Assembly: GCA_964397985.1 (NCBI GenBank)
Contig: CAYNLD010000013.1
Location: 2,586 to 34,585 of the forward strand
Origin: an uncultured Propionibacteriaceae bacterium
GTDB taxonomy: Bacteria > Actinomycetota > Actinomycetes > Propionibacteriales > Propionibacteriaceae
DNA length: 32,000 nucleotides
Direction of reading: 5' to 3'
Shown piece by piece: positions 6,363 through 25,336 of this stretch (positions within the stretch are counted from its first letter, which is position 1; each line of letters starts with the position of its first letter). A program made the position numbers and the translations under genes. The notes under the pieces are model-generated. The model ran no database searches, had not been told where the DNA came from, and saw only the letters and a list, made by a program, of their open reading frames with translations.

Positions 6363-8132
6363 TTGGCTGACAGAACGCTGAACCGGGACGCCGGCACGCT
6401 CGACCCCACCCTGTGGGGCCACCGGTGGGGCTTCCAGGACACGAGGCTGTTCCTGCACCCGGACGGCTCGGTGGAGATGACCGGCGAGCGGTACAACCTG
6501 TGCGGCTACCGGATGCCCTACCTCGTCCCCTTCATCAACAAGGAGCTGGGCGTCGAGATCGACTTCACCGCGAACCGTCCACTCACCGAGGCGCCGAGGG
6601 TCACGCCCGCCGCACGCAACGAGGCCTTCCTCGCCGCGCTGGCCGGCACGCTGCGCCCCGACCAGTTCAGGGCCGACGACCCGGAACGCCTCCTGCACAG
6701 CCACGGACAGACCACCACAGAGGAGGTCTCGCGGGTGCTGTACGACGACCTCGACCGCTGCGTCGACCTCGTCGTGTGGCCCGAATCGGACGCCGACTGC
6801 CAGGCGGTCGTCACCGCGGCGGACGTGCACGGCGTGTGCCTGATCCCGTACGGTGGCGGGACGAACGTGAGCAGCGCGCTGCTCGTGCCGGCGTCCGAGA
6901 CCCGGATGGTGGTTTCCGTCGACACCCGGCGGATGAACCGCGTCCTGCACGTCGACCGGGCGAACCTGACCGCCACCGTGCAGGCCGGGATCACGGGCGG
7001 ACGCCTGGAGCAGCTGCTCGCGACGGAGGGGCTCACCTGCGGCCACGAGCCGGACAGTTCCGAGCTGTCCACCCTCGGCGGCTGGATCGCCACCAACGCC
7101 AGCGGGATGAAGAAGAACCGCTACGGCAACATCGAGGACCTGGTGGAGAACGCGACGCTGGTCACGCCCGCCGGGGTGATCGAGCAGCAGTACTCCAGCC
7201 CGCGCCAGTCCCCCGGCATCCAGCTGCAGAAGGCGCTGTTCGGCAGCGAGGGCAACCTGGGCCTGGTCACGAAGGCCGTGGTCCACGTCCACCCGCTACC
7301 GGAGGTGAAGAAGTACGGCTCGGTGATCTTCGCGGACTGGCCCACCGGAGTGTCCTTCATGGAGGCGCTGAACCGGACCGGTGCCCGCCCGGCCAGCATC
7401 CGGCTGGTCGACAACCTGCAGTTCCGGCTGGGCCAGTCGCTGAAGGCCGCCCCGAGCGGGAGGGCGAAGGTACTGAAGAGCCGGGCCGAGGAAATCCTGG
7501 TCACGAAGATCAAGAAGTTCGACACGCACACGATGGTCGCAGCGACGATCGTCTACGAGGGCGCGGCGGCCGAGGTTGCCATGCAGGAGAAGGCGGTCGC
7601 GTCCACGGCGAGGCGCTTCGGCGGGCTGCAGGGGGGCTCGGGCAACGGCGAGCGAGGCTACATGCTGACCTACGCGATCGCCTACCTTCGCGACTTCCTG
7701 GCCGACTACTTCGTGATCGGCGAGACGTACGAGACGACGGTGCCGTGGGACCGGATCCACGACGTCTGCGCTGCGGTGGACCGGACGGCGAGGTCGGAGC
7801 ACGCCCGGCTGGGCTTCCCCGGCACGCCGTTCACCTCACCCCGGCTCACCCAGATGTACCACAGTGGCGTCTGCCTCTACTTCACCCACGGCCTGTACCA
7901 CCGCGGAGTGGAGGACGGCGATGCGAAGTTCGCCGAGATGGAGCGGAACATCCGCACCGCGATCATGGACGCCGGCGGCTCGATCTCGCACCACCACGGT
8001 GTCGGCAAGCTCCGCAAGCACGTCGTCGACCGCGTCGCGTCCACCGAATCGGTGGCCGCCGTGACCGCGCTCAAGCAAGCCGTCGACCCCCACAACGTCT
8101 TCGGCATCGCCAACAACATCTTCGGCTCCTAG
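6363..8132 (+). CDS. FAD-linked oxidase resembling alkyl-dihydroxyacetonephosphate synthase (AGPS)
   Basis: AGPS-type N-terminus (RWGFQDTRLFLHPDGSVEMTGERYNLCGYRMPYLVPF). FAD-binding PCMH region (VCLIPYGGGTNVSSA). C-terminal ISHHHGVGKLRK motif. The TTG start at 6363 is the only in-frame start before these motifs, so the start is less certain than the gene. Confidence 0.85.
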   Translation: MADRTLNRDAGTLDPTLWGHRWGFQDTRLFLHPDGSVEMTGERYNLCGYRMPYLVPFINKELGVEIDFTANRPLTEAPRVTPAARNEAFLAALAGTLRPDQFRADDPERLLHSHGQTTTEEVSRVLYDDLDRCVDLVVWPESDADCQAVVTAADVHGVCLIPYGGGTNVSSALLVPASETRMVVSVDTRRMNRVLHVDRANLTATVQAGITGGRLEQLLATEGLTCGHEPDSSELSTLGGWIATNASGMKKNRYGNIEDLVENATLVTPAGVIEQQYSSPRQSPGIQLQKALFGSEGNLGLVTKAVVHVHPLPEVKKYGSVIFADWPTGVSFMEALNRTGARPASIRLVDNLQFRLGQSLKAAPSGRAKVLKSRAEEILVTKIKKFDTHTMVAATIVYEGAAAEVAMQEKAVASTARRFGGLQGGSGNGERGYMLTYAIAYLRDFLADYFVIGETYETTVPWDRIHDVCAAVDRTARSEHARLGFPGTPFTSPRLTQMYHSGVCLYFTHGLYHRGVEDGDAKFAEMERNIRTAIMDAGGSISHHHGVGKLRKHVVDRVASTESVAAVTALKQAVDPHNVFGIANNIFGS

Positions 8133-8266: not shown

Positions 8267-8445
8267 ACGCTGCTCCGCAGCCGACTCCCGCAGACAGGAG
8301 AAGCCCATCCGGGCAGCCAAGTACGTACTGTTTCCCCCCTTGTCGGACGCACGTTCGAGGCAACGAACCCGCTGGTAGCGTGCAGAACGCCCGCGGGCCG
8401 GACGTCTCCGGCCGATCCCCAGCAACGAGTTTCCCAGGAGGCCGC

Positions 8446-9276: not shown

Positions 9277-11543
9277 GTGTCGACCTCGGAACCGCGAGGA
9301 TCCTGCTCACTGGTGGGACGGGTTTTGTCGGGCAGGCCATCCTCGAACGCCTGCTGAGCGGCCACCCCGGCACCACGGTCCTGGTGCTGGCGAGGGCGAA
9401 GGGCGAGCTGAGCGCCCAACAGCGGGTCGACTACCTGCGTGAGAAGGCGGTCTTCGCCCGCTGGCGCGAGGCCGTCGGCGAGGACGAGGCCCGGCGGCAG
9501 TTCGCCGAGCGGGTGCAGGTGGTCGAGGGTGATCTCGGCGCGCTCGGGCCGGAGCCGGAGCGACTCGACCTGGTCCTGCACAGTGCGTCCTCGGTGAACT
9601 TCGACGACCCGATCGACTCCGCGTTCGCGACCAACGTCACGGCTGTGGCGAGGCTCTATCAGGGTCTGCTGGACGCGGGCGCCGACCCCCACGTCGTCCA
9701 CATCTCCACCGCCTACGTGAACGCGGCGCGGAAGGGACCGGCAACGGAGGGCCCCGTCGATCATGAGGTGGACTGGCGGGCCGAGGAGGAAGCGGCACGG
9801 TCGGCCCGGACCCGGGTGGACGCGCGCTCGCGAGCCCCCGAAGAGCTGCGTCGGTTCCTGAGGGCCGCGCGGCAGGACGTCGGCAAGATCGGTCCGCAGG
9901 CGGTCGCAGAGGCCACCGAGGCGGCCCGGTGCGCCTGGGTGGACGCCGAACTGGTCGAGTACGGGCGCGCCCGCGCGCAGAGCCTGGGCTGGACCGACGC
10001 CTACACCCTGACCAAGGCGCTCGCGGAGCGGCTGGCGGAGGAGCTGTGGCTGGGTGGCGGGCACCGGCTCTCGATCGTGCGCCCTTCGATCATCGAGAGT
10101 GCGCTGCGGCACCCGTACCCGGGCTGGATCGACGGTTTCAAGGTGGCCGACCCCCTGATCGTGGCGTACGGCCGGGGTCACCTGCCGGAGTTCCCCGGGA
10201 TTCCCGACAGCGTGCTGGACGTGGTGCCGGTGGACTTCGTGGTGAATGCGGCGCTGGCCGCTGCGGCGACCGCTGCGCCGCGTGACCGGGCGCGCTACTT
10301 CCACGTGGTCTCCGGCACGTCGAACCCGCTGCCGATGCACCAGATGTACGAGAACATCCGGGCGTACTACACGGCGCACCCGATCCCGGGCGCGGACAGG
10401 CCCACCAGCGTGCCGGCGTGGCAGTTCCCCGGAGGGATCCGGTTCGAGGCGAGCCTGAGCCGCAAGGAGGTCGGGGCGACGCTCGGCGCCTCCGTGTTGT
10501 CCCGGCTGCCGACGACGCCGAAAGCTCGCGACCTGGCGGATTCACTGGCGTCGGCGCAGAAGAAGCTGCGGGCACTGCACCGGTTCTCCGAGCTGTACCA
10601 GGCCTACGTCCAGGCCGAGGTGGTCTTCGACGACGCGGCCACGCGGGCGCTGGACGCCGAGACCTCGGCCGGACCGCAGGACGATGCGGGGTTCGATGTG
10701 ACCGCCATCGACTGGGCGCACTACCTGCAGGAGATCCACCTGCCCTCGATCGCGGCACTCCCCCGCCGGCCGTCGCACGGGTCGCGGCCCGAGCGGACGC
10801 AGGCACCGCTGTCCCCGGCCCCGGACGTGCTGGCGGTGTTCGACCTGGAGGGCACGGTGCTGCACGCGAACCTGATCCAGCAGTACCTGTGGCTGCGGGA
10901 CGCGGAGCGGGACGTGACGGCAGTGCCACGGGAGTTGACCAAGATCCTGGCGCTGCTCCCCCGCTACCTCGCTGCCGAGCGGCGGGACCGCAGCGAGTTC
11001 ATCCGCAGCTTCCTGCGGCTACACAAGGGCATGTCTGTTGACGACATAAAGAGATACATCGACGGACGCGCGGGACGCAAGCTGCGCGCGCACCTGTTGA
11101 CGGACGCACTGGCGCGGGTCGAGGAGCATCGCGCGGCCGGCCACCACACCGTGCTGGTGACCGGTGGGGTGGACCTGCTGGCCGATGTGGCGGCGCCATG
11201 GTTCGACCGAGTTGTGGCGAGCGGACTGCACTCCCGCGACGGGGTGCTGACCGGCTACCTGGCGGCACCGCCAGTGGTGGGCGAGGCGCGGGCGGCGTGG
11301 TTGCGCGGCTATGCGGCCTCCGGAGGCTTCGACCTGGCGAAGTCCTACGGCTACGGCGACAGCCAGGCCGACACCTCCTGGCTGCGGCTGCTCGGCCACC
11401 CTGTGGCGGTGAACCCCGACCAGAGGCTCTACGGCTATGCCCGCACCCACCACTGGGATGTCGTCGAGTGGCGACAGACGGGCGCCCGCCCGCCAGTCCG
11501 ACCCGTCCAAACCCCCGCGACCGCAGCCAAGGAGGGCCGATAG
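9273..11543 (+). CDS. fatty acyl-CoA/ACP reductase (NAD_binding_4-type SDR) fused to a HAD-IB hydrolase domain
   Basis: The GTG at 9273 overlaps the upstream stop (GTGA). N-terminal LLTGGTGFVGQ Rossmann motif, ISTAYV and YTLTKALAE (YxxxK). The C-terminal third, from about 10824, has HAD motifs VFDLEGTV and GYGDSQAD. The track ORF start at 8910 lies inside the upstream gene and was not used. Confidence 0.85.
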   Translation: MSVDLGTARILLTGGTGFVGQAILERLLSGHPGTTVLVLARAKGELSAQQRVDYLREKAVFARWREAVGEDEARRQFAERVQVVEGDLGALGPEPERLDLVLHSASSVNFDDPIDSAFATNVTAVARLYQGLLDAGADPHVVHISTAYVNAARKGPATEGPVDHEVDWRAEEEAARSARTRVDARSRAPEELRRFLRAARQDVGKIGPQAVAEATEAARCAWVDAELVEYGRARAQSLGWTDAYTLTKALAERLAEELWLGGGHRLSIVRPSIIESALRHPYPGWIDGFKVADPLIVAYGRGHLPEFPGIPDSVLDVVPVDFVVNAALAAAATAAPRDRARYFHVVSGTSNPLPMHQMYENIRAYYTAHPIPGADRPTSVPAWQFPGGIRFEASLSRKEVGATLGASVLSRLPTTPKARDLADSLASAQKKLRALHRFSELYQAYVQAEVVFDDAATRALDAETSAGPQDDAGFDVTAIDWAHYLQEIHLPSIAALPRRPSHGSRPERTQAPLSPAPDVLAVFDLEGTVLHANLIQQYLWLRDAERDVTAVPRELTKILALLPRYLAAERRDRSEFIRSFLRLHKGMSVDDIKRYIDGRAGRKLRAHLLTDALARVEEHRAAGHHTVLVTGGVDLLADVAAPWFDRVVASGLHSRDGVLTGYLAAPPVVGEARAAWLRGYAASGGFDLAKSYGYGDSQADTSWLRLLGHPVAVNPDQRLYGYARTHHWDVVEWRQTGARPPVRPVQTPATAAKEGR

Positions 11544-15394: not shown

Positions 15395-15676
15395 TCACCA
15401 CCGCCGCACGCGCTGGCGGTGATTGCTCACGTTGTTGCCGTCGATCGCGGTGCGCTGGGTGCCACGCACCTCGTCCACCTTCTGGTCGGTGCCGGTGATC
15501 GGCTTCGACTCGATCAGCGTCTCCCGCTCGAAAGAGTGCGACCTGCCGGTGTTGCGGTAGAACTGGAACAACCCCCAGTAGACAGCGACCGCCCCCGCCG
15601 GGCCGAGCAGCAGGATCCACGGGGTGTCGCCGCTCGCGGCGAGCGGGATGAGCAGCCCGATCAGCAGCGTCGTCAT
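15395..15676 (-). CDS. small membrane protein (two predicted TM helices plus a polar tail)
   Basis: MTTLLIGLLIPLAASGDTPWILLLGPAGAVAVYWGLFQF followed by a charged tail. Its ATG overlaps the upstream stop (ATGA at 15673-15676). Third-position G/C is high. Confidence 0.6.
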   Translation of the reverse strand: MTTLLIGLLIPLAASGDTPWILLLGPAGAVAVYWGLFQFYRNTGRSHSFERETLIESKPITGTDQKVDEVRGTQRTAIDGNNVSNHRQRVRRW

Positions 15677-16917
15677 GACATCACCGCCAGGAGCCACAAC
15701 GCGACGCCCTCCAGCACGGTCCCGGCGGCCAGCGCGGCCAGAATCAGCCGTCCCTGCGAGACCGGGACGCTGCCCATCGTCTCGCCCGTCCGTCCGTTCA
15801 CCGCGATGTAGTGCACCATCGCGTGGCCGTTCTCCTCGTAGTAGTAGGAGTACAGCCACACCGGGAGGTACATCGACACCCAGCGCGTTCCGTGGACGAC
15901 GAGGTGCTCGTTCTCCCAGCGCACGCCGCGGTTGTACCGGGACACCGAACCCTCGACCTGGGAGCGCGCGATCGAGAGCAGCTGGTCCTCCAGGACGGGC
16001 TGAACCTGGGCCACGTCCTGGTCCCTGCGTTCGGAGGTGAAGCCGACGAGGTAGTTGGCGTTCCACTGCACCGCGTTCTTGGTGTCGAACGGCAGGATCG
16101 TGTTGATCACGTTGTTCGTGTTGACGAAAGCGTCCATGTTCGCGCGCTCTGCGGACGACTCGATGGTCAGGTCGTCGACGGCGAAATCGACATGCCGGGC
16201 GACCTGGTACACGTCCGCGTCGTAGTAGGTCTCCTCCTGATCGCCGTGCGTGCGGGTGTAGCGCCTGGTCTCGACCTCGCCGAAGCCCTGCACGTCGGCG
16301 CTGGCGTTGCCGTCGACGACCATGTAGGGCAGGTAGACGCCGACCACGTTCTCCGGGGCGAAGTCCCGGCGGAACTTCCGGTGGGCGAACAACCTGCGGG
16401 CGCCGGCGAACTCCCGGATGTGCGCCAGAGCCCGGTCACGGGTGATGCCGAAGGGCAGGACCGCGTCGGGCACAGCGCCGTTGGGCACCTGCTCGTTGAT
16501 GGTGAGGATGTGCCTGCACCAGTGACAGCGGGACGACATCGCCTCGGCGGTGTTCACCACGACCTCCGAACCGCACCCCGGGCACTTCAGGGTGATCACC
16601 CCGGACACCTCCGGCGAGATGTCCGTCGCACCCGAGGCGACGACCGTCCCCGTGAGGTCCTGCAAGGCGCCCTCCCCGGCCACCACCGGTTCGATCCTCG
16701 CCTCGGACCACTCGTAGCGGCAGAACAGGCAGACCAGCTTGCCTGCGGAGACGCGCAGCTGGATCTCGGTCGAGCCGCACTTCGGGCACCGGTTGAGGCC
16801 GTCGTGGAGGGCCTGGTTCGCGGTGTCCACGGTCTGCGGACCGGGCGCCCCGGGTGGCACGGCGCCGGGTTGCCCCGGGCCGGTCACCGCCTCGGGCGTG
16901 GCCTGGGAGTCGGTCAT
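15673..16917 (-). CDS. double zinc-ribbon protein with a C-terminal TM anchor (YdjG / TFIIB-type zinc-ribbon-like)
   Basis: Two CxxC...CxxC units are present (CPKCGSTEIQLRVSAGKLVCLFC; CPGCGSEVVVNTAEAMSSRCHWC). There is a C-terminal hydrophobic helix (LILAALAAGTVLEGVALWLLAV). It starts 9 nt after the SPFH gene stop. Confidence 0.8.
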   Translation of the reverse strand: MTDSQATPEAVTGPGQPGAVPPGAPGPQTVDTANQALHDGLNRCPKCGSTEIQLRVSAGKLVCLFCRYEWSEARIEPVVAGEGALQDLTGTVVASGATDISPEVSGVITLKCPGCGSEVVVNTAEAMSSRCHWCRHILTINEQVPNGAVPDAVLPFGITRDRALAHIREFAGARRLFAHRKFRRDFAPENVVGVYLPYMVVDGNASADVQGFGEVETRRYTRTHGDQEETYYDADVYQVARHVDFAVDDLTIESSAERANMDAFVNTNNVINTILPFDTKNAVQWNANYLVGFTSERRDQDVAQVQPVLEDQLLSIARSQVEGSVSRYNRGVRWENEHLVVHGTRWVSMYLPVWLYSYYYEENGHAMVHYIAVNGRTGETMGSVPVSQGRLILAALAAGTVLEGVALWLLAVMS

Positions 16918-16926
16918 CTCGGAATC

Positions 16927-18105
16927 CTAGAGACCGAGTGCCTTGGCCTTCGCCGCGTCATAGTCCGCCTGCGTGATCAGCCCCGCGTCCAGCATCTCCT
17001 TGAACTTCGCCAGCTTGGCCACCGGATCCTCGGCCGCAGGCTGCGGGGTGGCCGGCGCGGCGGGAGCCTGCGGAGCGGGCGCCTGCACGGGCTGCTGGAG
17101 CGCGCCGATGCCGGTCGTGCCCGCCGCCATGCCCATGCCGACCAGCCCTCCGGGGCCGGCGTTCTCACCCGCGGCCTCGAAGCCGGCCGCGACCGAGGCC
17201 TGCAGGTTCGAGTTGCCCCGTCCGCCGGAGAGGGCGTCAGCACGCTGCACATTGCGCAGCAGCTCGCGGGTCATCTCGTCGTACTCGATCGAGATGATCG
17301 CCGTCGCAACGATCGCGAGGCCGCGCTCCGCGCGCCACTGGTAGTTCTCCTCGACCGCGGCGGAAAGGCTCCGCGCGAAGCCGTCGGAGTCCTGCTGGAT
17401 CTTGGTGATCCGCCCCTTCGCCGGGTCGTTGGTGTACATCGAGAAGGCCGGCGCAAGGGAGGCCACCACCTCGTTGAACAGCTGGGCGGCGGCGTCGTTC
17501 TCGATGTCGGTGAAGTCGAAGACCCGACCCGGTTCGAGGTAAGTCGCGGGCACGAACGACTTGATGAACAGGATCGGGTCGACGATCTTCAGGGTGTAGG
17601 TGCCCCGAGTGACCGCACCGACCTGCGCGTTCATGTAGGCGTCGTCCCAGTAGATCTCGGACTGGGTGCCAAAGCGGTTGTTGGGCAGCTCCTTGAGCGT
17701 GACGAAGTAGGCGCGCTGCTGGGTGCCGGGGCGTCCGCCGAACTTGAACCTCTCCCACGAGGTGGTGACGGTGGAACTCACGAGGTCGTTGCCCGCGAAG
17801 ATCGACTGGGAGTCCTGGGCCTCGGAGTTCCACTCGTAGGCGCCCGCCTGCGCGGCGAAGCCGGTGATGGCGCCGTCCTGCATCAGGACCAGGCCGTAGC
17901 CCTCGGGAACGAGGATGCGGCTGCCGTTGGTGATCACACCCTCGGAGCCGTGCGTGTTCGAGCCGCGCCCGGCGTTCTGCCCCTGCGGAACCGCCGCGAA
18001 CAGCGCTGCGGTCGGGGCCAGACCGCCCGGGACGGTGTAGAAGTCCTTCCACTGATCGGCAAGCGTTCCGCCGATTGCTCCGATCGCTGCCTGAATGAGT
18101 CCCAT
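16927..18105 (-). CDS. SPFH/Band-7-like protein (YdjI / 'virion core protein'-like) with a C-terminal SHOCT domain
   Basis: N-terminus MGLIQAAIGAIGGTLADQWKDFY and the central region are typical of the YdjI-like SPFH family. The C-terminal KLAKFKEMLDAGLITQADYDAAKAKALGL is a SHOCT motif. I chose the ATG at 18105 (AGGAG 6 nt upstream) over the TTG at 18108. Confidence 0.85.
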   Translation of the reverse strand: MGLIQAAIGAIGGTLADQWKDFYTVPGGLAPTAALFAAVPQGQNAGRGSNTHGSEGVITNGSRILVPEGYGLVLMQDGAITGFAAQAGAYEWNSEAQDSQSIFAGNDLVSSTVTTSWERFKFGGRPGTQQRAYFVTLKELPNNRFGTQSEIYWDDAYMNAQVGAVTRGTYTLKIVDPILFIKSFVPATYLEPGRVFDFTDIENDAAAQLFNEVVASLAPAFSMYTNDPAKGRITKIQQDSDGFARSLSAAVEENYQWRAERGLAIVATAIISIEYDEMTRELLRNVQRADALSGGRGNSNLQASVAAGFEAAGENAGPGGLVGMGMAAGTTGIGALQQPVQAPAPQAPAAPATPQPAAEDPVAKLAKFKEMLDAGLITQADYDAAKAKALGL

Positions 18106-18363
18106 CAAAGGCTCCTTCGTGTGTCGGGTCCCTGCCTGCCGCCGTTGGCAGGTCCGGGTAGGGGCCGTCTCCCCTGCACGAGCCTCACCCTACTGATCGG
18201 GCGGTGCGCAGGGCGACCACCCGGGGCTCGAACAACACCAACTGGTCGCCAGGACGTTCCGGTGTCGCCCGCCCGTCCCCGTCCCCGGGGCAATTCCCGC
18301 ACTGAGCGGGCCCGTGCCAACCGGATTCGAACCGCCCTATCGTGGGCCCAGCCGGGAGGTGGG

Positions 18364-20715
18364 ATGAGCTCCGACGACAGCAAGGGGCGGTGGGGGTGGA
18401 TCGCGGGCATACTCACCGGCTGCTGCCTGCTCTACGTGGGCTGGCTGGCCGCGATCGCTGTCCAGCCCGCGCTCCGCGGCGCGGCGCCGTCGTGGCTCGG
18501 CTCGATCGGTGACCCGGGCTCGTTGTCGTCGATGACGCTGGGTCTCCTGCTGGCGGCGGGCGCGTTCGGTGCCCTGCTCGCTGGCAGGAAGCCGGCCACC
18601 CTTCGGATCCCCTTCCTGCTCTCTGCCTGGTGCGCCGTCTGGGCCCTCCCGCTCGCGATGGCCGCCTATCTCCCCTGCGCCGGCGGCGCGCCGCCGTTCT
18701 GGACCGCCGTCTCCTCGACCCTCGCGCTGTTCCTGGGATCGTTCGACGTCCCGTTCGGCACCAGCGAGGCATGCAGCTATCCGATACCCCTCGGGCTCCA
18801 GCTGGCACGACTGCTGGCCATTGGCGCCACACTGAGCGGCGCCACCTCGGTGCTCTTCGCGGTCTCGAGGTCGCAGCTCGACCGATTCGGGCTGATCCGC
18901 TCCCGCAGCCTCACCGTGTTCGTCGACATGGACGCGGCGGCCCTGCCGCTTCTGCAGCGATCAGCGTCCCGAAAGGGCCGGGGCGGCAGGACGGTCCTGC
19001 TGACTGCCGGCGCGGACGAGTTCGCCGAACCGGCCCGGCTCGCCGGCGCCCTCGTCATCGCCACCGGCGCCAAGGATCCGCTCGGCCTCAGCGAGGCGAT
19101 GCCGTGGGCGAAGGTGACCTCGTGCTACCTGCTCTCCGCGGACCCCTCGACGAACCGGTCCCGAGCGCTGGAGCTGCGACGGCTGCTCTCGGGTGTTCCG
19201 GACGACCTGCGGCGTGCCGGCCGGATCCGGGTGGTCGCCCGGATCGATGATCCGTGGCAGGCCGACGACTGGCGCAAGAGGTTCATCGGTGACCCAGGCT
19301 TCGTCTTCGATGCCGTGAGCACGTTCGAGGCAACGGCGGACCTGCTGGTCGCCCGGCTGACGGACGGTCCGGCTCCCGCGCACCTGCTCGTCACCGGCGA
19401 CGCACCACTCGTGCTGGGCCTGTGCGCCGAACTCTCCCAGCACGGACGTGAGGCCCGGTTCCTGGACGGCGCCGCCGCACTGCCCGCGGTGACCGTGCTC
19501 GATCCGGACGCGACGGAACTCGTGGCGGACCACCGCCTGCGGCAGAGCCGGTTCGTGAGCGACCCCGTGCCGATCAGCGCCGTCGACGCCGCCGCATCGC
19601 TGGCGACCGTCGAGGAGCACCTGACCCGGCTCGGCGAGAACGAGGAGTGTGCAGTCGTGATCGCGTCTGCGGGTACGCGCCTCGGTAGCCGGCTCGCCCT
19701 GCGACACCCCGACCTGCTCGTGTACGAACTCGCCGGCGAACCGGGGGTGAACCATGTCGACGAGTCACCGGTCGGTCGCCTGCACACCTTCGGCCTCGGC
19801 CTGACCGACGCCGAGGGCAGCATCACCGATGTCTGGGAGCGGGCGGCGCAGGCGCTGCACGAGAGGTACCGGCGCCGCTTCCCCACCGCGCCGCTCTCGG
19901 TGCCCTGGTCCGAGCTGCCGAGCGAGCTGTACCGGGAGTCGAACCGCCGGCAGCTGCATTCCGTCCTCGACTCCGTGGCCGCACTCGGCCGGACGTGGGC
20001 TCCCACCGTGCCCGACCCGGCCGGCGGCGCGGAGGATGACTCCCCGGCCACGGGGACCGCGTCGGAGCGCGTGGCCGCCGGCCTGGTCCGATTCGGCCTC
20101 TCCGAGGCCGAGTTGGCCGAGGTGGCGCAACGGGAACACGAGTCGTGGGCGGCGCTGTTCACTCGCCACGGGTGGCGGTACGGTGCCGAACGGGACACCG
20201 CCGGACGCCGTCATCCCGACCTGCGACCGTGGGCAGAACTGGACGATGACGCGCGGCTGAAGACGGCGGCAGGTGTGGTCGACACGCTGTTCGCGCTCCG
20301 CGCGCTCGGCTACCGGGCGGTCCGGCCGGACGAGGCCGGCGGCTGGACGCTCTTCGAGCGGATCGGCGAGGTCACCGCCACGCGGCTGGACGCGCCTCAC
20401 GAGTGGCGGACGGAGGGTGGCGACGAGTTGGTCGGCGCACCCGGGGACTGGCTCGTGACCGACGGAGCGGACAGCCTCCGCACAGTCACGGACGCGAGCT
20501 TCCATGCAGGCCACGAGCACCTCACCGAGGACCGCTGGCGACGCGTCGGGACGGTCCGGGCGCGGCGCGCGGTTCCCGGCGAGGAGGTGCGGACCCAGGA
20601 GGGCCGCACCGTGGCGGGGACGGACAGCTGGGTGGCATCGGACGCCGACGGTCACCGATGGCTGGTCCCCGATGCCCAGCTCAGGGCGACCTACCGTCCG
20701 GCGAGCCAGGACTGA
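18364..20715 (+). CDS. multi-pass membrane protein with degenerate Rossmann-like regions, RyR domain(s) and a PGDYG-like C-terminal domain
   Basis: ATG at 18364 preceded by GGGAGGTGGG. About 5 TM helices lie in aa 10-167. RyR signature: REHESWAALFTRHGWRYGAERDTAGRRHPDLRPWAELDDDARLKTAAGVV. The C-terminus has APGDWLVTDGADSLRTVTDASF (PGDYG-like). The first 851 codons of track ORF 15811-20715 are antisense to real genes and were discarded. Confidence 0.75.
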   Translation: MSSDDSKGRWGWIAGILTGCCLLYVGWLAAIAVQPALRGAAPSWLGSIGDPGSLSSMTLGLLLAAGAFGALLAGRKPATLRIPFLLSAWCAVWALPLAMAAYLPCAGGAPPFWTAVSSTLALFLGSFDVPFGTSEACSYPIPLGLQLARLLAIGATLSGATSVLFAVSRSQLDRFGLIRSRSLTVFVDMDAAALPLLQRSASRKGRGGRTVLLTAGADEFAEPARLAGALVIATGAKDPLGLSEAMPWAKVTSCYLLSADPSTNRSRALELRRLLSGVPDDLRRAGRIRVVARIDDPWQADDWRKRFIGDPGFVFDAVSTFEATADLLVARLTDGPAPAHLLVTGDAPLVLGLCAELSQHGREARFLDGAAALPAVTVLDPDATELVADHRLRQSRFVSDPVPISAVDAAASLATVEEHLTRLGENEECAVVIASAGTRLGSRLALRHPDLLVYELAGEPGVNHVDESPVGRLHTFGLGLTDAEGSITDVWERAAQALHERYRRRFPTAPLSVPWSELPSELYRESNRRQLHSVLDSVAALGRTWAPTVPDPAGGAEDDSPATGTASERVAAGLVRFGLSEAELAEVAQREHESWAALFTRHGWRYGAERDTAGRRHPDLRPWAELDDDARLKTAAGVVDTLFALRALGYRAVRPDEAGGWTLFERIGEVTATRLDAPHEWRTEGGDELVGAPGDWLVTDGADSLRTVTDASFHAGHEHLTEDRWRRVGTVRARRAVPGEEVRTQEGRTVAGTDSWVASDADGHRWLVPDAQLRATYRPASQD

Positions 20716-22295
20716 TACTTCGCCGGGTAGTCCGACATCACGAGGTCGGGTTCCACCCGGCTGACCCGGTCCCACTGCTTCTCGTCGTTCGGCACCCAGA
20801 CCATCACCCGCAGGCCGATCGCCCGCAGCGCCTCGACGTAGCCTGCGTCCGCGATCCCCTGCTCGACCGCGACCGCCCAGAGCTGGTCCGCGGCCAGATC
20901 CGCTGCGGGAATGCGCGTGCCCGACACGAACAGCATCCGCCGGAACCCCGCGTCAGCCGCACGGATCGCCTCCAGCCGGGCCCTGTCCGCGGACGTGAAC
21001 ACCGTTCGGTCGGCGAGGCCGTACTTCGCCGGCTCGGCGAGCAGGCCGCTCAGCCTCGCGGGCGACATGTCGGTCTTCGCCTCGAGGAAGACCCACGCCG
21101 TAGGGCTCGCCGCAGCGATCCCCTCCAGCGTCGCGTCGAGCCTCGGCACCTCGTAGCTCGTCGGATCGACCGCGGTCGGCTTCGATCGACAGGTCGAGCT
21201 CAGTTTTGCCCACGTCACCTGCGAGACCCGGATCTCCTGGCCACCGCAGTCCAGGCCCTTGGTGGCCTTCTCGTCGTGGACGAGCACCGCGACCCCGTCG
21301 CTGGTGTAGCGGACGTCGGTCTCCACGGCGAAGCCCGATCGAGCAGCCGACTCCATCGCTGGCTGGGTCTCGAACTGGTGCTCCTCGAGCCCGCCCCGGT
21401 GGGCGAGGATCGGCGGGTTCGGCAGGTCGGCCGCGACCGCGCCGGTCGACGACGGGCCCGGGCTCGGCGTCAGGACCGGGGTCGGGGCCATCGGCGACGG
21501 TGACGGCGCGGTGCTGGTCGCCGCGACCTGCCGCCACGGCTGCCAGACCATCAGAGCAAGAATCAGAGCGAGCGCGAGTGCAGCAGCGCCGACGAGGATC
21601 GCCGGACGGGACCGGGTGCGGCGATGCGGGACCGCCAGTGGCGCGTCGGGCCCCCCGTCCGCAGGGAGGTGTGGCGCAGGCTCGATGTGGGTCGGCGGAA
21701 TCGGGGCTGCGTGGCTCGCGCGCGCGGCAGCCTCCTCAGGGGGTGCCGGCGCCGGAGCCGGGGGGACGGGGCTGGGCGCTTCGACCCCGGGCTGCGCGAC
21801 GCCCGGTTCGTCCGCGGGAGTCGGGTGGGCGAGGGACGTGGCGAGAGTTGCCAGGAGCCGATCGGTGTTGAACCCCACCGGGTTGATCTCCACGGCCTGC
21901 CGACGCGTGAGCGATGCCAACTCGCCGGGCAACTCTGCCGCCTCGGGCATTCTCGCGCCATCCACGAGGATGGGCACCACGCGCACCCCGCGGCTCAGCG
22001 CCGCGGTCAGCTCGATCCGCACGAAGTCGTCGGGATTGTCGAGGCGACGCCGACCCTTGTCGTCGGTCATGGCCAGCCACTGGGGCCCGATCAGGGCCAG
22101 AAGTACGTCGCAGGCACCGACAGCTTCGGTGATCCGGTCGACGAAATCATCTCCCGGGTCGATGTCGTCGACGTCCTTGAACACCGACTCGGCCCCGAAC
22201 CGGGACACCAGCACTTCGTACAGCTGCCGGGCCGGCCAGGCGGTCTCCTGGCGACGGTAGCTGATGAAGATCTTGCCGGCTGGTCCGGCTGGCAT
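20691..22295 (-). CDS. TIR domain - single TM - glycerophosphodiester phosphodiesterase (GDPD)-like fusion protein
   Basis: N-terminal KIFISYRRQE...DFVRIELTAAL (TIR_2-like). Then a Pro-rich linker, RRTRSRP plus the helix AILVGAAALALALILALMVW, then ILAHRGG...FAVETDVRYTSDGVAVLVHD (GDPD-like). A GAAGGGGGG RBS lies 4 nt before the ATG. Confidence 0.8.
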   Translation of the reverse strand: MPAGPAGKIFISYRRQETAWPARQLYEVLVSRFGAESVFKDVDDIDPGDDFVDRITEAVGACDVLLALIGPQWLAMTDDKGRRRLDNPDDFVRIELTAALSRGVRVVPILVDGARMPEAAELPGELASLTRRQAVEINPVGFNTDRLLATLATSLAHPTPADEPGVAQPGVEAPSPVPPAPAPAPPEEAAARASHAAPIPPTHIEPAPHLPADGGPDAPLAVPHRRTRSRPAILVGAAALALALILALMVWQPWRQVAATSTAPSPSPMAPTPVLTPSPGPSSTGAVAADLPNPPILAHRGGLEEHQFETQPAMESAARSGFAVETDVRYTSDGVAVLVHDEKATKGLDCGGQEIRVSQVTWAKLSSTCRSKPTAVDPTSYEVPRLDATLEGIAAASPTAWVFLEAKTDMSPARLSGLLAEPAKYGLADRTVFTSADRARLEAIRAADAGFRRMLFVSGTRIPAADLAADQLWAVAVEQGIADAGYVEALRAIGLRVMVWVPNDEKQWDRVSRVEPDLVMSDYPAKYQSWLAGR

Positions 22296-22450
22296 TCGAC
22301 CCCCCTTCGAACGTCTCGGGTCATGCTAGGCCTCGCCGCGGGCCCGGCGATGGTGGAATTTGTCGTGATCCGCGCTCGCCGGGCCAGCCCGGATGCGGAG
22401 TTGTGCCCGTTGTTGATGACGCACGGTCCCGTGCGGATCGAGAATGCGGG

Positions 22451-25336
22451 ATGGCCACAGCGTGGGACGCCTTCATCTCCTACGCCCGCGCCGACTCCGA
22501 GCGGACGGCCGTCGCGATCCAGCGTGGCCTCGAACGTTTCGCCCGGCCCTGGAACCAGCGCCGCGCTGTGCGCGTCTTCCGTGACGACTCGGCGATGTCG
22601 ACCAATCCCGCCCTGTGGTCGGCGATCGAGGACGGGCTCGCCCAGGCCCGGAACCTGATCGTCCTGATCAGCCCCGCCGCTCGCGACTCGGCCTACGTCG
22701 ACAGGGAGGTCGGCTGGTGGCTCGACCACAAAGGGGCGGACACGATCCTGCTGGTGCTGGACGCGGGCGGCCTCGACTGGGACGAAGACCTCAACCGGTT
22801 CTCCGAAGACAGCGCCGTCCCGCCCCGCCTGCGCGATGCGTTCGAGGAGGAGCCGCGCTGGCTCGACCTGCGCTGGATGCGGACCTCCCCCGAACCCGCC
22901 ACGGATCCGCGCTTCACCTCCGCCGTCGCGGACCTGTCCGCCCCGATCCGGGGGCTGCCACGTGACGAACTCGTCGGTGAGGACCTCACCCAGCACCGCC
23001 GCGTCCGACGGCTGGCCCGCGGGGCCGTGAGCCTGCTCGCGCTCCTCCTGGTGGTCTCGATCACCTCCACCGCGCTCGCGATCCAGCAGCGCGACGACGT
23101 GCTGCGCCAGGCCGTCACGCTCCGCGCCCGGGGACTGGCGAACACCGCGACCGGCCTGCTCGACTCCGACCTGCGCCTCGCGCAGCTGCTCGCGGTTCAG
23201 GGTTACCGCACCGAATCGTCCGCCACGACCAGGGACGCGCTGTTGCAGGCTGCCTTCGCCTCGCCGCTGATCGATCACTTCACCAGCTTCGACGCCGACA
23301 TCACGGCGCTCACGACCAGCCCGGACGGCTCCACGGTCGCTGTCGGGCTCGCCGACGGCCGGGTCTTCACGGTGGACGCCGAAGGCCACTCGACACCCGT
23401 GCTCCGGGGTGCGGCCGGCGCGCCAGTGACCACCCTGCGGGCCAGCAGCGACGGCTCGGCGTTGCTGGTCGGCACGCCCTCCGGAATCAGCCTCGTCGGT
23501 GCGACGGGCCTGCGAGCGCTCGTGGACGGCCCGTTGACCACCCCTGATGCGGTGGCCCTGTCCGCCTCGGGGCGTCGGGCGGCGATCATCACCGGTGACG
23601 GGTCGGCGATGATCAGGGTCTACGACGCAGGGACGGGCGCGGAGGTCCTGCGCCGCCGAGACCCGCTGGCGCCGAGGCCGAACACCCCGGTGGTCTCGCC
23701 GCAGTACACCGACCGCCTGGTCTTCCTCAATGACTCCACGATGCGCCTGATCGGCATCGACGCACGCTGGCGACAGCTCGATCTGCGCACGGGCCGAACC
23801 AGTCGGGCCGGTTCGGCCCGTTGGGAGCCGTACGCCAACCTCTACGCCGCCTCCGGCCGTGGCGACTACCTGCTCTCCGCCGCGATCACGGGCGGTCAGG
23901 CCGTACGGGCCTGGCCGCTGGACCGGACCGGCAGCGACAACAGCCCGCTCGTCGCGGGCGTCCAGCTGACTGATCCGCTCGGCCTCGCGATCAGCCCCGG
24001 CGGTCGGCTGGTAATGGTGAACGACTCCTCCACCGGGCTCTCCGTCGCGCCGGTGCGGCGCGAAGACCGCCTGCCTGTCGTGCCCGCGACCCGGATCGCC
24101 GGGCTCAGCGGGGTCACGGCGATGGAGTTCACCGGTGAGACCGGGGCTGTGGCGGCGGCGCGCACGGACCTGGTCTTCCTCCGCTTTGGAGGGGCGGGGC
24201 GAGGTTCGGCCGCCGTCGCGCTGTTCCCGCGAGGCGTCGGCAACGTGCCCGACTACGCGGTCGACTACCGGAACTCCGGCATGGCGGTGTCTCCGGACGG
24301 GTCCAGGCTCGCCGTGCTCGAACTGGAGTACGCCGAGTTGGAGGTTGTCCCGCTGCCCGGCCGTGAGGGCACGGCACTCGGCAGGACGAGCCTGCCGACC
24401 AGCGACCAGCTGGACGCCCTGTACGGACCGCTGTGGCTGGACGACGACACCGTTCTCGTGCTCTACTCCGACCCCGGAGGTGTCGAGAAGGGGCCGGTCG
24501 CCGGTGTGGCCCGCTGGAACCTCGGCCTGCCGATCGATGACCACGGCGATCGCGAGACCCCACTCGCCGCGGTCCGCACCGAAGCGGGCTCCGTACTGGT
24601 CGCCACGTCGAGTGGGCGGGTTCAGACCCGGGCGGCCACCGGGGAACTCGTCTCCGAGTCCGGGCCCGACGCCGCACCCGGCGCTCGAACCGGGCCGTAC
24701 AGCCAGGCCCGGTTCAGCGTGGACGCACGCTACCTGGCCCTGCTGCGTGCCGCGGCGCGCGGCGACGACACCGGCACCCGCGGCGTCTCGCTGCGGGTCG
24801 TGGACAACGCGACGGGGGTCGTCGTCCACGAGCAGCAGTGGCCGCAGGCCACCGACCCGGTCGGAGTCGAGTTCGTCGGCACGACTGTGCTGGTGTCGCA
24901 CACGGACGGCTCGATCGACGTGCTGCCGGACCTGGGTCGCGGCGTCCCGTCACGGGTCTCCACCAGCGGCACCCGCACCAGCACCGGCTCGTTCCAGCGC
25001 AACCCGCCCGTGGTCGGCGCGGACGGACTGGTCGGCTTCCCCACCCGGTCCGGGCTCCAGCTGTACGACCTGAACTCGCTGCAGCCGGTCGGTACCGTTC
25101 CGGTGACACCAGGGTTCGAGACGGTCCCACGCACCTACGCGTTCGCCCCTGACGGCCACACGCTGGTCACCGGGTACCTCGGCGGCGATCGGCGCACGGC
25201 CCGCGCCATCGTCCAGGACCTCGACACCGCGGCGGTCGTTTCCGGCGTCTGTGCGGGTGCCGGCGGAGCGATCACGGCAGCGGAATGGCTGCGCGTCGTT
25301 GGAGACCAGACGCCCAGTGAGCGGGCCTGCCCCTGA
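22451..25336 (+). CDS. TIR domain - single TM - beta-propeller (WD40/PD40-like repeat) protein
   Basis: MATAWDAFISYARAD...SAYVDREVGWWL (TIR). Then HRRVRRLAR plus the helix GAVSLLALLLVVSITSTALAI. Then repeated blade-like units (TSPDGSTVAVGLADGRVFTVD, SSDGSALLVGT, VSPDGSRLAVLE, FAPDGHTLVTGY). I chose the ATG at 22451 over the GTG at 22403. Confidence 0.8.
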   Translation: MATAWDAFISYARADSERTAVAIQRGLERFARPWNQRRAVRVFRDDSAMSTNPALWSAIEDGLAQARNLIVLISPAARDSAYVDREVGWWLDHKGADTILLVLDAGGLDWDEDLNRFSEDSAVPPRLRDAFEEEPRWLDLRWMRTSPEPATDPRFTSAVADLSAPIRGLPRDELVGEDLTQHRRVRRLARGAVSLLALLLVVSITSTALAIQQRDDVLRQAVTLRARGLANTATGLLDSDLRLAQLLAVQGYRTESSATTRDALLQAAFASPLIDHFTSFDADITALTTSPDGSTVAVGLADGRVFTVDAEGHSTPVLRGAAGAPVTTLRASSDGSALLVGTPSGISLVGATGLRALVDGPLTTPDAVALSASGRRAAIITGDGSAMIRVYDAGTGAEVLRRRDPLAPRPNTPVVSPQYTDRLVFLNDSTMRLIGIDARWRQLDLRTGRTSRAGSARWEPYANLYAASGRGDYLLSAAITGGQAVRAWPLDRTGSDNSPLVAGVQLTDPLGLAISPGGRLVMVNDSSTGLSVAPVRREDRLPVVPATRIAGLSGVTAMEFTGETGAVAAARTDLVFLRFGGAGRGSAAVALFPRGVGNVPDYAVDYRNSGMAVSPDGSRLAVLELEYAELEVVPLPGREGTALGRTSLPTSDQLDALYGPLWLDDDTVLVLYSDPGGVEKGPVAGVARWNLGLPIDDHGDRETPLAAVRTEAGSVLVATSSGRVQTRAATGELVSESGPDAAPGARTGPYSQARFSVDARYLALLRAAARGDDTGTRGVSLRVVDNATGVVVHEQQWPQATDPVGVEFVGTTVLVSHTDGSIDVLPDLGRGVPSRVSTSGTRTSTGSFQRNPPVVGADGLVGFPTRSGLQLYDLNSLQPVGTVPVTPGFETVPRTYAFAPDGHTLVTGYLGGDRRTARAIVQDLDTAAVVSGVCAGAGGAITAAEWLRVVGDQTPSERACP

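Follow-up and report, generated by a model that had tools for sequence, protein, structure and literature searches.

A membrane-anchored TIR-GDPD protein of the Propionibacteriaceae and its genomic linkage to an RyR-domain membrane protein

Two divergently oriented genes of an uncultured member of the Propionibacteriaceae each encode a TIR domain, a single transmembrane (TM) helix and a large C-terminal domain, a layout that raises the question of whether they form a receptor-like pair or whether either of them is associated with a different partner. The window analyzed here is a 32,000-nt stretch of this genome; all coordinates are positions in it, and L-numbers denote comparison loci from other genomes or metagenomes. 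Gene A (20691–22295, minus strand; 534 amino acids (aa)) encodes a TIR domain, a TM helix and a glycerophosphodiester phosphodiesterase (GDPD) domain, as identified from Pfam and homologs. Gene B (22451–25336, plus strand; 961 aa, counted from the ATG that leaves a 155-bp spacer between the two genes) encodes a TIR domain, a TM helix and two WD40 propellers, as identified from Pfam, a structural model, Foldseek and homologs. The GC content of the window is high (0.65–0.75), and both reading frames show the third-codon-position GC (GC3) signature of genuine genes; codon-position GC thus supports two divergent genes, and public contigs carry identical gene calls for this locus. An earlier reading of the DNA by itself (the sequence-only reading) had described A and B as a divergent pair, suggested to be under joint control, and every coordinate that it gave was found to be correct. 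The neighbor that is kept beside gene A across its relatives is, however, not gene B. It is the convergent gene on the other side of gene A, which encodes a 783-aa RyR-domain membrane protein (18364–20715, plus strand; identified from Pfam RyR, an AlphaFold2 model and adjacency counts). This gene lies just outside the coordinates given by the sequence-only reading, which had missed it.

Relatives of gene A were gathered by scanning a single genome for each species, which gave 77 loci, 46 of them with a TIR-GDPD gene. Named carriers include Propionicimonas sp. T2.31MG-18 (L038), whose TIR-GDPD gene adjoins an RyR gene, and Micropruina sonneratiae (L044), where no RyR gene is adjacent; both are cultured. 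Genes in these loci were called with a relaxed GC3-based script, which reproduced public gene calls, and their products were then clustered. In none of the 46 species-level loci does a B homolog lie beside the TIR-GDPD gene, and the proposed A/B pairing recurs in one other lineage only (L171). An RyR gene, by contrast, is adjacent in 14 loci and a SLATT gene in 17, while 15 have neither; thus, 31 of the 46 TIR-GDPD genes adjoin RyR-TM or SLATT genes, an adjacency of the Thoeris type. The RyR/TIR-GDPD adjacency spans at least nine flanking contexts and four orientations, with the two genes convergent, co-directional on either side (L042, L043, L050) or divergent (L041). The SLATT-flanked clade (17 genomes) is ∼45% identical to gene A, and its flanking genes belong to SLATT_1, SLATT_3 or DUF4231. 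A 784-aa gene beside A homologs in L029 and L036 was suspected from its size to encode a divergent RyR protein and turned out to encode a molybdopterin oxidoreductase.

The linkage was also approached from the RyR side, where a metagenome search that started from aligned RyR family proteins gave 80 loci. Half of them (40/80) have an immediately adjacent TIR gene, a raw count that is inflated since many of the loci are phylogenetically related; after de-replication at 70% identity, an adjacent TIR gene is present in 16 of 21 RyR clusters. As an internal control within the same loci, TIR genes account for 40 of 147 adjacent open reading frames and for 4 of 335 non-adjacent ones (odds ratio 31, Fisher p = 1.6e-18). 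The adjacent TIR genes fall into several architectures: 26 encode TIR_2-TM-PknH_C proteins, 11 TIR-nSTAND1-WD40 proteins, 2 TIR-GDPD proteins and 1 a protein of another type. Their TIR domains belong to subfamilies too divergent to detect each other. Twenty-two of the TIR-TM-PknH_C genes are co-directional with the RyR gene and directly downstream of it, and a cultured example is found in Mycobacterium sp. PS03-16, where an RyR homolog is divergent from a TIR-TM-PknH_C gene. A literature search found no description of a TIR/RyR-domain linkage.

The RyR domain of the partner protein (PF02026, residues 586–651) scores 45.9 bits against a cut-off of 27.4 (E = 7e-12). In the AlphaFold2 model (predicted local distance difference test, pLDDT, 85; predicted template-modeling score, pTM, 0.69), about five N-terminal helices are followed by a Rossmann-like pair (residues 182–476), a helical segment (490–540), the RyR domain (566–647) and a β-rich C-terminus. 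The N-terminal membrane region, delimited by hydropathy and the model, corresponds to 18364–18900. The two Rossmann-like domains (18907–19791; model, Foldseek and family alignment) are probably RCK/TrkA_N-like, as supported by their predicted fold, and contain an invariant RIDDPW motif, of which R293, D295, D296, P297 and W298 are each found in 77/77 sequences of the RyR family alignment. Next comes the R12-type RyR domain (20059–20316), whose profile matches the R12 repeats of RyR1, RyR2 and RyR3 in the Protein Data Bank (PDB; E = 2e-25 to 1e-15); Foldseek also retrieves ryanodine-receptor R12 domains. The C-terminal domain (20347–20700) appears PGDYG-like from the strands of the model (residues 662–779) and from Pfam matches within the family, the PGDYG match in the window protein itself being weak (E = 0.004). 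Among 60 diverse family members, Pfam detects RyR in 50, PGDYG in 32 and TrkA_N in 4. An exhaustive search puts the RyR-TM family at ∼250 clusters at 50% identity, nearly all of 750–830 aa.

Pfam scans of the separate TM, Rossmann and linker segments of the RyR protein returned no family. Within the membrane region, residues 111–179 comprise a short and a long helix with a conserved loop between them, an arrangement that only suggests a pore, in which a filter lies between pore helix and inner helix. Conserved positions of the family alignment in and near this region are C105 (77/77), G125 (76/77), C137 (71/77) and P142 (77/77). Of the hallmarks of K+ channels, neither a GYG motif nor an Ion_trans match in Pfam is present.

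The RyR domain is of particular interest for its possible ligand. Phage proteins with this domain bind or cleave 2'cADPR and 3'cADPR, isomers of cyclic ADP-ribose (cADPR) (Lopez Rivera et al., PMC13232231). In one of them, RyDEP, H75, W78 and H100 touch the ligand, and the catalytic dyad consists of H75 and D117; the majority of homologs bind but do not cleave (PMC13232231). The equivalent residues were placed in the window protein by hand alignment to phage DyoEdafos gp78, using the residues named in that paper. The three ligand contacts correspond to H592, W595 and H617, which are conserved in 76/77, 77/77 and 76/77 family members. The position of D117 is occupied by T634 in the window and by Ala, Thr, Ser or Val in the family (n = 77), so the His of a RyDEP-type dyad is kept and the Asp is absent. 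Since this position is never acidic, the RyR protein is predicted to be a nucleotide binder rather than a glycosidase.

Residues 489–540 of the same protein (19828–19983) contain the invariant motifs WERAA..H and PW.EL...YR.SN.RQ, which look like a first RyR repeat in degenerate form. With Foldseek, ∼184–215 columns of the RyR protein align to two-repeat R12 tandem domains, while Pfam sees no first repeat. Judging by these alignment lengths and the motif resemblance, the protein may carry an intramolecular R12-like pair.

Several other gene arrangements were observed around RyR genes. The TIR-nSTAND1-WD40 proteins that adjoin them are NLR-like and ∼1400 aa long (L099 7301–11551, L111 670–4788 and 9 further loci), which suggests that the module also exists in a variant with a cytoplasmic sensor. 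At L054 (7989–9827) and L060 (4999–6969), RyR genes adjoin genes for TIR_2 proteins of the gene A TIR subfamily, in which a ∼500-aa C-terminus with no Pfam match takes the place of GDPD. In TIR-less loci (L145 4316–4828, L125 617–1357 and ∼14 similar ones), genes for a small soluble RyR-domain protein (∼165 aa) and for CobS precede the large RyR gene, and a multi-pass membrane protein of ∼520–560 aa with no Pfam match is encoded downstream. At L172, a LOG/SLOG-type gene (LDcluster4, Lysine_decarbox; 10795–11331) adjoins the RyR gene; in other systems linked to TIR, SLOG domains sense or process nucleotides.

The TIR domain of gene A (21846–22271) matches TIR_2 (PF13676, residues 9–118) with 47.8 bits against a cut-off of 28 (E = 2e-12), and its best solved relative is the TIR domain of human SARM1 (E = 3e-7). 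When ...DDFVRIELTAAL of gene A is aligned to ...KDWVHKEIVTAL of SARM1, E95 in the VRIELT motif (codon 22011–22013) falls on the catalytic E642 (VHKEIV). SARM1 is a soluble or mitochondria-associated protein with ARM and SAM domains, and differs from gene A in having neither a TM helix nor an extracellular domain. The GDPD domain (PF03009, residues 299–525) scores 68.5 bits against a cut-off of 23.6 (E = 1e-18); its profile aligns across the whole barrel with 2pz0, 4oec and 2otd, defining a TIM barrel at 20721–21401, and its PDB matches include 9euf, a phage GP-PDE-domain protein. Residues invariant in 21 homologs include E95, the GDPD set H299, R300, E325, D327 and H340, and two cysteines, C350 and C369, which form a family-specific pair confined to the GDPD domain and would be joined by a disulfide. 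Both the TIR and the GDPD domain are thus predicted, from residue conservation, to be catalytically intact. The full barrel and the catalytic His/Arg/Glu/Asp/His are shared with secreted and periplasmic GDPDs of the GlpQ/UgpQ class and with phage GP-PDE receptor-binding proteins, from which gene A differs in its Cys pair and in the fusion of GDPD, via a TM helix, to a putatively cytoplasmic TIR domain.

The TIR domain of gene B (22460–22960) is only just recognized by profiles, with a marginal 30.8 bits for TIR_2 (cut-off 28) and 24.7 bits for ThsB_TIR (cut-off 21.2). Its E86 (VDREVG, codon 22706–22708) is invariant in 36 homologs; phmmer of this domain against the PDB gave no match, leaving E86 without a sequence alignment to a solved TIR domain. 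The AlphaFold2 model (pLDDT 85.4, pTM 0.72) contains a TIR fold, one long helix (residues 171–235) spanning the TM segment and an all-β region (residues 274–923). Foldseek relates the β region to tandem-WD40 proteins (Apaf-1 WD region, Utp21, 2ymu; E = 1e-22 to 1e-18). The gene B matches to WD40-type Pfam models stay below cut-off, and homologs closer to the consensus score well on them. The C-terminal part (23270–25219; model, Foldseek and homologs) is therefore described as tandem β-propellers of degenerate WD40 type followed by C-terminal helices; the latter contain C934 and C960, invariant in the 36 homologs. With these results, the initial identification of a TIR domain and a retained Glu in both proteins, of GDPD with two cysteines in A and of a propeller in B, is confirmed.

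Hydropathy finds one helix in each protein, after the Arg-rich stretches RRTRSRP in A and HRRVRRLAR in B that had been noted before. The helix of gene A, its only hydrophobic one (residues 232–250, 21546–21602; mean hydropathy 2.86), is preceded by 4 Lys/Arg within 15 residues and followed by 1; that of gene B (residues 193–211, 23027–23083) has 5 before and 3 after. The linkers beside the gene A helix are Pro/Ala-rich and Ser/Pro/Thr-rich, and neither protein has an N-terminal signal sequence ahead of its TIR domain. This positive-inside pattern, the restriction of the invariant Cys pairs to the C-terminal domains and the missing signal sequence together argue for TIR inside and GDPD or propellers outside, in agreement with the topology first suggested. 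Gene A would then be a type-II membrane protein with a cytoplasmic TIR domain and GDPD facing the cell envelope, and gene B would combine a cytoplasmic TIR domain with outside WD40 propellers. We also considered that GDPD might act on the TIR product; this idea was rejected, since the single TM helix separates the two domains across the membrane.

The TIR-TM-GDPD fusion had been put forward as not previously described. This stands for its function, on which a literature search found no paper, but not for the family, which is abundant in databases: it comprises more than 1000 protein clusters, of which the best 120 all carry TIR_2 and GDPD. Members from Propionicimonas, Micropruina and other Propionibacteriaceae are named solely as glycerophosphodiester phosphodiesterase family proteins. 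The gene B family is likewise widespread among Actinobacteria, where its members are called TIR domain-containing protein or WD40 repeat protein. An extracellular WD40 propeller serves as a surface sensor in EsrA1 of oral Actinomycetota (PMC13622651), a precedent for gene B, although EsrA1 has no TIR domain. The NLR-like TIR-WD40 and TIR-STAND-WD40 proteins of actinobacteria have a related layout, from which gene B differs in possessing a TM helix and lacking a STAND NTPase.

The A/B pairing itself is real but young. L171 keeps the block RyR-A-B, with identities of 66% for A, 71% for B and 74% for the RyR gene, and with different outer flanks; L172 (61% identity) has A and the RyR gene and no B. 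Three B homologs that were examined all stand alone amid housekeeping genes, and on a single contig of Propionicimonas sp. 5N585 a distance of ∼430 kb separates the A homolog from the B homolog. On the best reading, gene B belongs to a separate actinobacterial family, usually occurring alone or with an unlinked partner, that joined this locus recently. The 155-bp divergent spacer (22296–22450) contains a 16-nt block (22360–22375, TTGTCGTGATCCGCGC) that is also present in L171, despite the proteins being just 66–71% identical, and sequence around the gene B start is conserved as well. An imperfect 20-nt inverted repeat (22338–22357 and 22369–22388) is found in the same spacer. The block or the repeat could be an operator or promoter element.

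On the other side of gene A, the convergent RyR gene and gene A overlap at their 3' ends by 25 bp (20691–20715). The identical 25-bp overlap is seen in three lineages (the window, L171 at 7344–7368 and L172 at 8361–8385), and the two genes are separated by a gap of 4–7 bp in L004 and L007. As such an overlap or gap provides no space for terminators between the genes, the tight 3' ends suggest transcriptional interference or antisense coupling.

The linkage suggests that the TIR/RyR pair is a variant of the TIR-signal/effector (Thoeris-like) systems, representing a pathway not described in bacteria. We propose that gene A and the convergent RyR gene constitute a two-gene module in which the transmembrane TIR protein makes a signal and the RyR-domain membrane protein is its effector or receiver, a reading to which we give even chances. 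In such a module, the GDPD domain would register an event at the envelope, its ligand or substrate being, at a guess, a glycerophosphodiester, for instance a fragment of teichoic acid or of a lipid head group. The inside TIR domains would then change their oligomeric state and turn NAD+ into an ADP-ribose-derived signal, most likely a cADPR isomer. Binding of this signal to the RyR domain of the neighboring protein would alter membrane permeability or ion flux. That the gene A TIR might make an ADP-ribose-derived signal is suggested by its SARM1-like character and by the pairing with SLATT in the sister clade. The input domain would be an extracytoplasmic GDPD here and PknH_C in other lineages; in sister clades, SLATT pore proteins, the effectors of type VII Thoeris, take the place of RyR beside TIR-GDPD. 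The output may lie in phage defence or in envelope physiology. That a sensor on the outside is coupled to a TIR domain on the inside had already been voiced in the sequence-only reading and, as a general idea, is supported. A more specific scheme, to which we give only tentative credence and which we consider more probably wrong than right, is an outside-in TIR pathway with interchangeable sensors (GDPD, PknH_C and possibly WD40), in which a cADPR-type nucleotide would gate a channel with RCK and RyR (R12) domains.

Among known systems, type VII Thoeris, as defined in a recent preprint, consists of the TIR protein ThsB and the SLATT effector ThsH, with canonical cADPR as the signal (Yirmiya et al., bioRxiv 10.64898/2025.12.03.692087). 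It likewise has a TIR with a catalytic Glu beside a membrane effector, and gene A relatives at 45% identity are flanked by SLATT genes. It differs in that the window contains no SLATT gene, SLATT being found only in the 45%-identity clade, and in that the gene A TIR is itself anchored in the membrane with a predicted extracytoplasmic GDPD. Type X Thoeris, according to the same source, combines a TIR protein with an ion-channel effector, with examples from Bacillus and Vibrio in which TIR is soluble (bioRxiv 10.64898/2025.12.03.692087). Both would follow the same logic, in which a channel-like membrane protein responds to a TIR signal; type X differs in its soluble TIR, with no RyR domain reported in the accessible text and tables, and the candidate effector of the window has no recognizable channel Pfam domain. 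The text and tables of Yirmiya et al., as far as they were accessible, hold no entry for GDPD, RyR domains or Propionibacteria, and mention no membrane-anchored TIR with an extracytoplasmic GDPD.

The phage RyDEP and anti-Thoeris proteins belong to the same domain family, and their H/W/H ligand contacts are kept in the window RyR protein. They are small soluble phage proteins that cleave host signals or sequester them, whereas the window encodes a 783-aa host membrane protein, linked to TIR and lacking the catalytic Asp. The animal ryanodine receptor has in common with the window protein an R12-type domain, set in a membrane protein near a SARM1-type enzyme. Beyond the RyR domain there is no homology, as neither the TM region nor the RCK-like part is related to the ryanodine receptor channel core, and direct gating of the animal receptor by cADPR is itself unsettled (discussed in PMC13232231). 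Both A and B share with Toll-like receptors an outside sensor, one TM helix and an inside TIR domain, as had been pointed out. The layout does correspond, in reversed N-to-C order; leucine-rich repeats are absent and the TIR domains are predicted to be enzymatic rather than adaptor scaffolds, so the likeness is one of analogy, not of membership.

A number of observations weigh against the proposed module. The neighbors of the locus, which include genes for an SPFH/SHOCT protein, a DEAD-box helicase, a GH2 enzyme and an MFS transporter, do not constitute a defence island; those of most relatives are likewise housekeeping or transport genes, unlike the defence-island setting of Thoeris, and the GC content of the locus is unremarkable. 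Curated Thoeris models do not recognize the proteins: the NCBIfam type III ThcB4 model gives 40.6 bits against a cut-off of 220, and in PADLOC only ThsB matches, in the TIR region and below threshold (E = 4e-8), with no system-level match. With regard to a channel, whole-length Foldseek matches of the RyR protein to Slo1/BK channels (560–830 aligned columns, E ∼1e-4) have TM-scores of just 0.22–0.25, and no channel Pfam model matches its TM region, either in the segment scan or among family members. The alignment around the RyDEP D117 position was made by hand. The association with RyR is also incomplete, since 15 of 46 TIR-GDPD loci have unrelated housekeeping neighbors in place of either partner and 30 of 80 RyR loci with both sides visible have no adjacent TIR gene, quite apart from the inflation of the raw counts by related loci. 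Finally, gene A runs convergent to the RyR gene in the window, and the two are thus transcribed separately rather than as one operon.

The loci without a partner would be expected if gene A were self-contained and its RyR adjacency were inherited synteny. Gene A might then encode a membrane-anchored extracellular GDPD that scavenges phosphate or glycerol or takes part in wall turnover, with a TIR domain that only oligomerizes, or a stand-alone SARM1-like suicide protein that depletes NAD+. The intact GDPD catalytic set would suit the former and the SARM1-like TIR, which could work through NAD+ depletion alone, the latter, and the family looks vertically inherited within Propionibacteriales. 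We nevertheless regard a self-contained gene A as unlikely: the RyR adjacency persists where orientation and flanks differ, unrelated TIR architectures show an independent linkage to the RyR family, RyR is replaced in a sister clade by SLATT, which is known as an effector of TIR signals, and a scaffold role needs no invariant catalytic Glu. If A and B were instead a jointly regulated receptor-like TIR pair, for example a hetero-oligomeric TIR assembly with two different outside sensors, they would at most share the RyR gene as a component downstream. The retention of the RyR-A-B block in L171 with different outer flanks, the conserved block and start region of the spacer, the shared topology and catalytic Glu of the two proteins, and the nSTAND1-type TIR-WD40 proteins beside RyR genes elsewhere would all fit such a pair. 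Just two independent contexts back the pairing, however, and set against the 0/46 adjacency, the absence of B from L172, the three solitary B homologs and the distance between A and B in Propionicimonas, this makes it decidedly improbable in our view. The RyR protein could also, instead of being the effector, regulate the TIR signal or serve as a sink for it, acting as a buffer, a sponge or a RyDEP-like degrader that sets a threshold, with TIR acting via an unlinked effector or NAD+ depletion. All RyR-domain proteins characterized so far in this context sequester or cleave cADPR isomers (PMC13232231), and some TIR-less loci pair a small soluble RyR-domain protein with a large one. Cleavage is unlikely with the catalytic Asp equivalent absent family-wide, though, and a conserved 780-aa build with TM region, two RCK-like domains and PGDYG exceeds the needs of a sponge and resembles ligand-gated membrane effectors; a sink thus appears to us very improbable.

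The weight of the TIR/RyR finding lies in the linkage of three unrelated TIR architectures to RyR membrane proteins, in the retention of the residues with which phage RyR-domain proteins hold cADPR isomers and in the SARM1-type TIR domain. To our knowledge, the bacterial TIR signalling systems described so far all employ soluble TIR proteins that sense infection inside the cell. If the proposed module is correct, it would show that bacterial TIR enzymes can be wired as genuine transmembrane receptors. The more specific outside-in scheme, if true, would in addition be the first Thoeris-like system that senses cell-envelope rather than cytoplasmic events, and the disputed animal link from cADPR to the ryanodine receptor would have in it a counterpart among prokaryotes and perhaps its evolutionary source. 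How R12 domains and cADPR might be connected to the pore has been an open question for animal ryanodine receptors for decades; if the reading is right, a small two-gene module open to genetics could allow binding of cADPR-class ligands by R12-type domains, and its relay to a membrane pore, to be tested. The two 2025–26 preprints that define the field (Yirmiya et al.; Lopez Rivera et al.) contain, in their accessible parts, neither an RyR-domain effector nor a TIR fused to an extracellular domain. Should our reading be wrong, the locus would still be a clean example of two abundant, uncharacterized actinobacterial families of membrane TIR proteins.

The nearest named relatives of the locus are from Propionicimonas, Micropruina and metagenome-assembled genomes of Propionibacteriaceae. 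Upstream of the RyR gene, 15673–18108 (minus strand) contains a gene for an SPFH/Band7 and SHOCT protein and one for a zinc-ribbon protein with a C-terminal TM helix. This gene pair is missing in L171 and more distant relatives, and is thus restricted to the window's own lineage. In the SLATT clade, the TIR-GDPD gene and the downstream SLATT genes of L005 (8001–10668) have a weaker GC3 signal than their neighbors and were skipped by a stricter gene caller, which may hint at a different codon usage or acquisition history.

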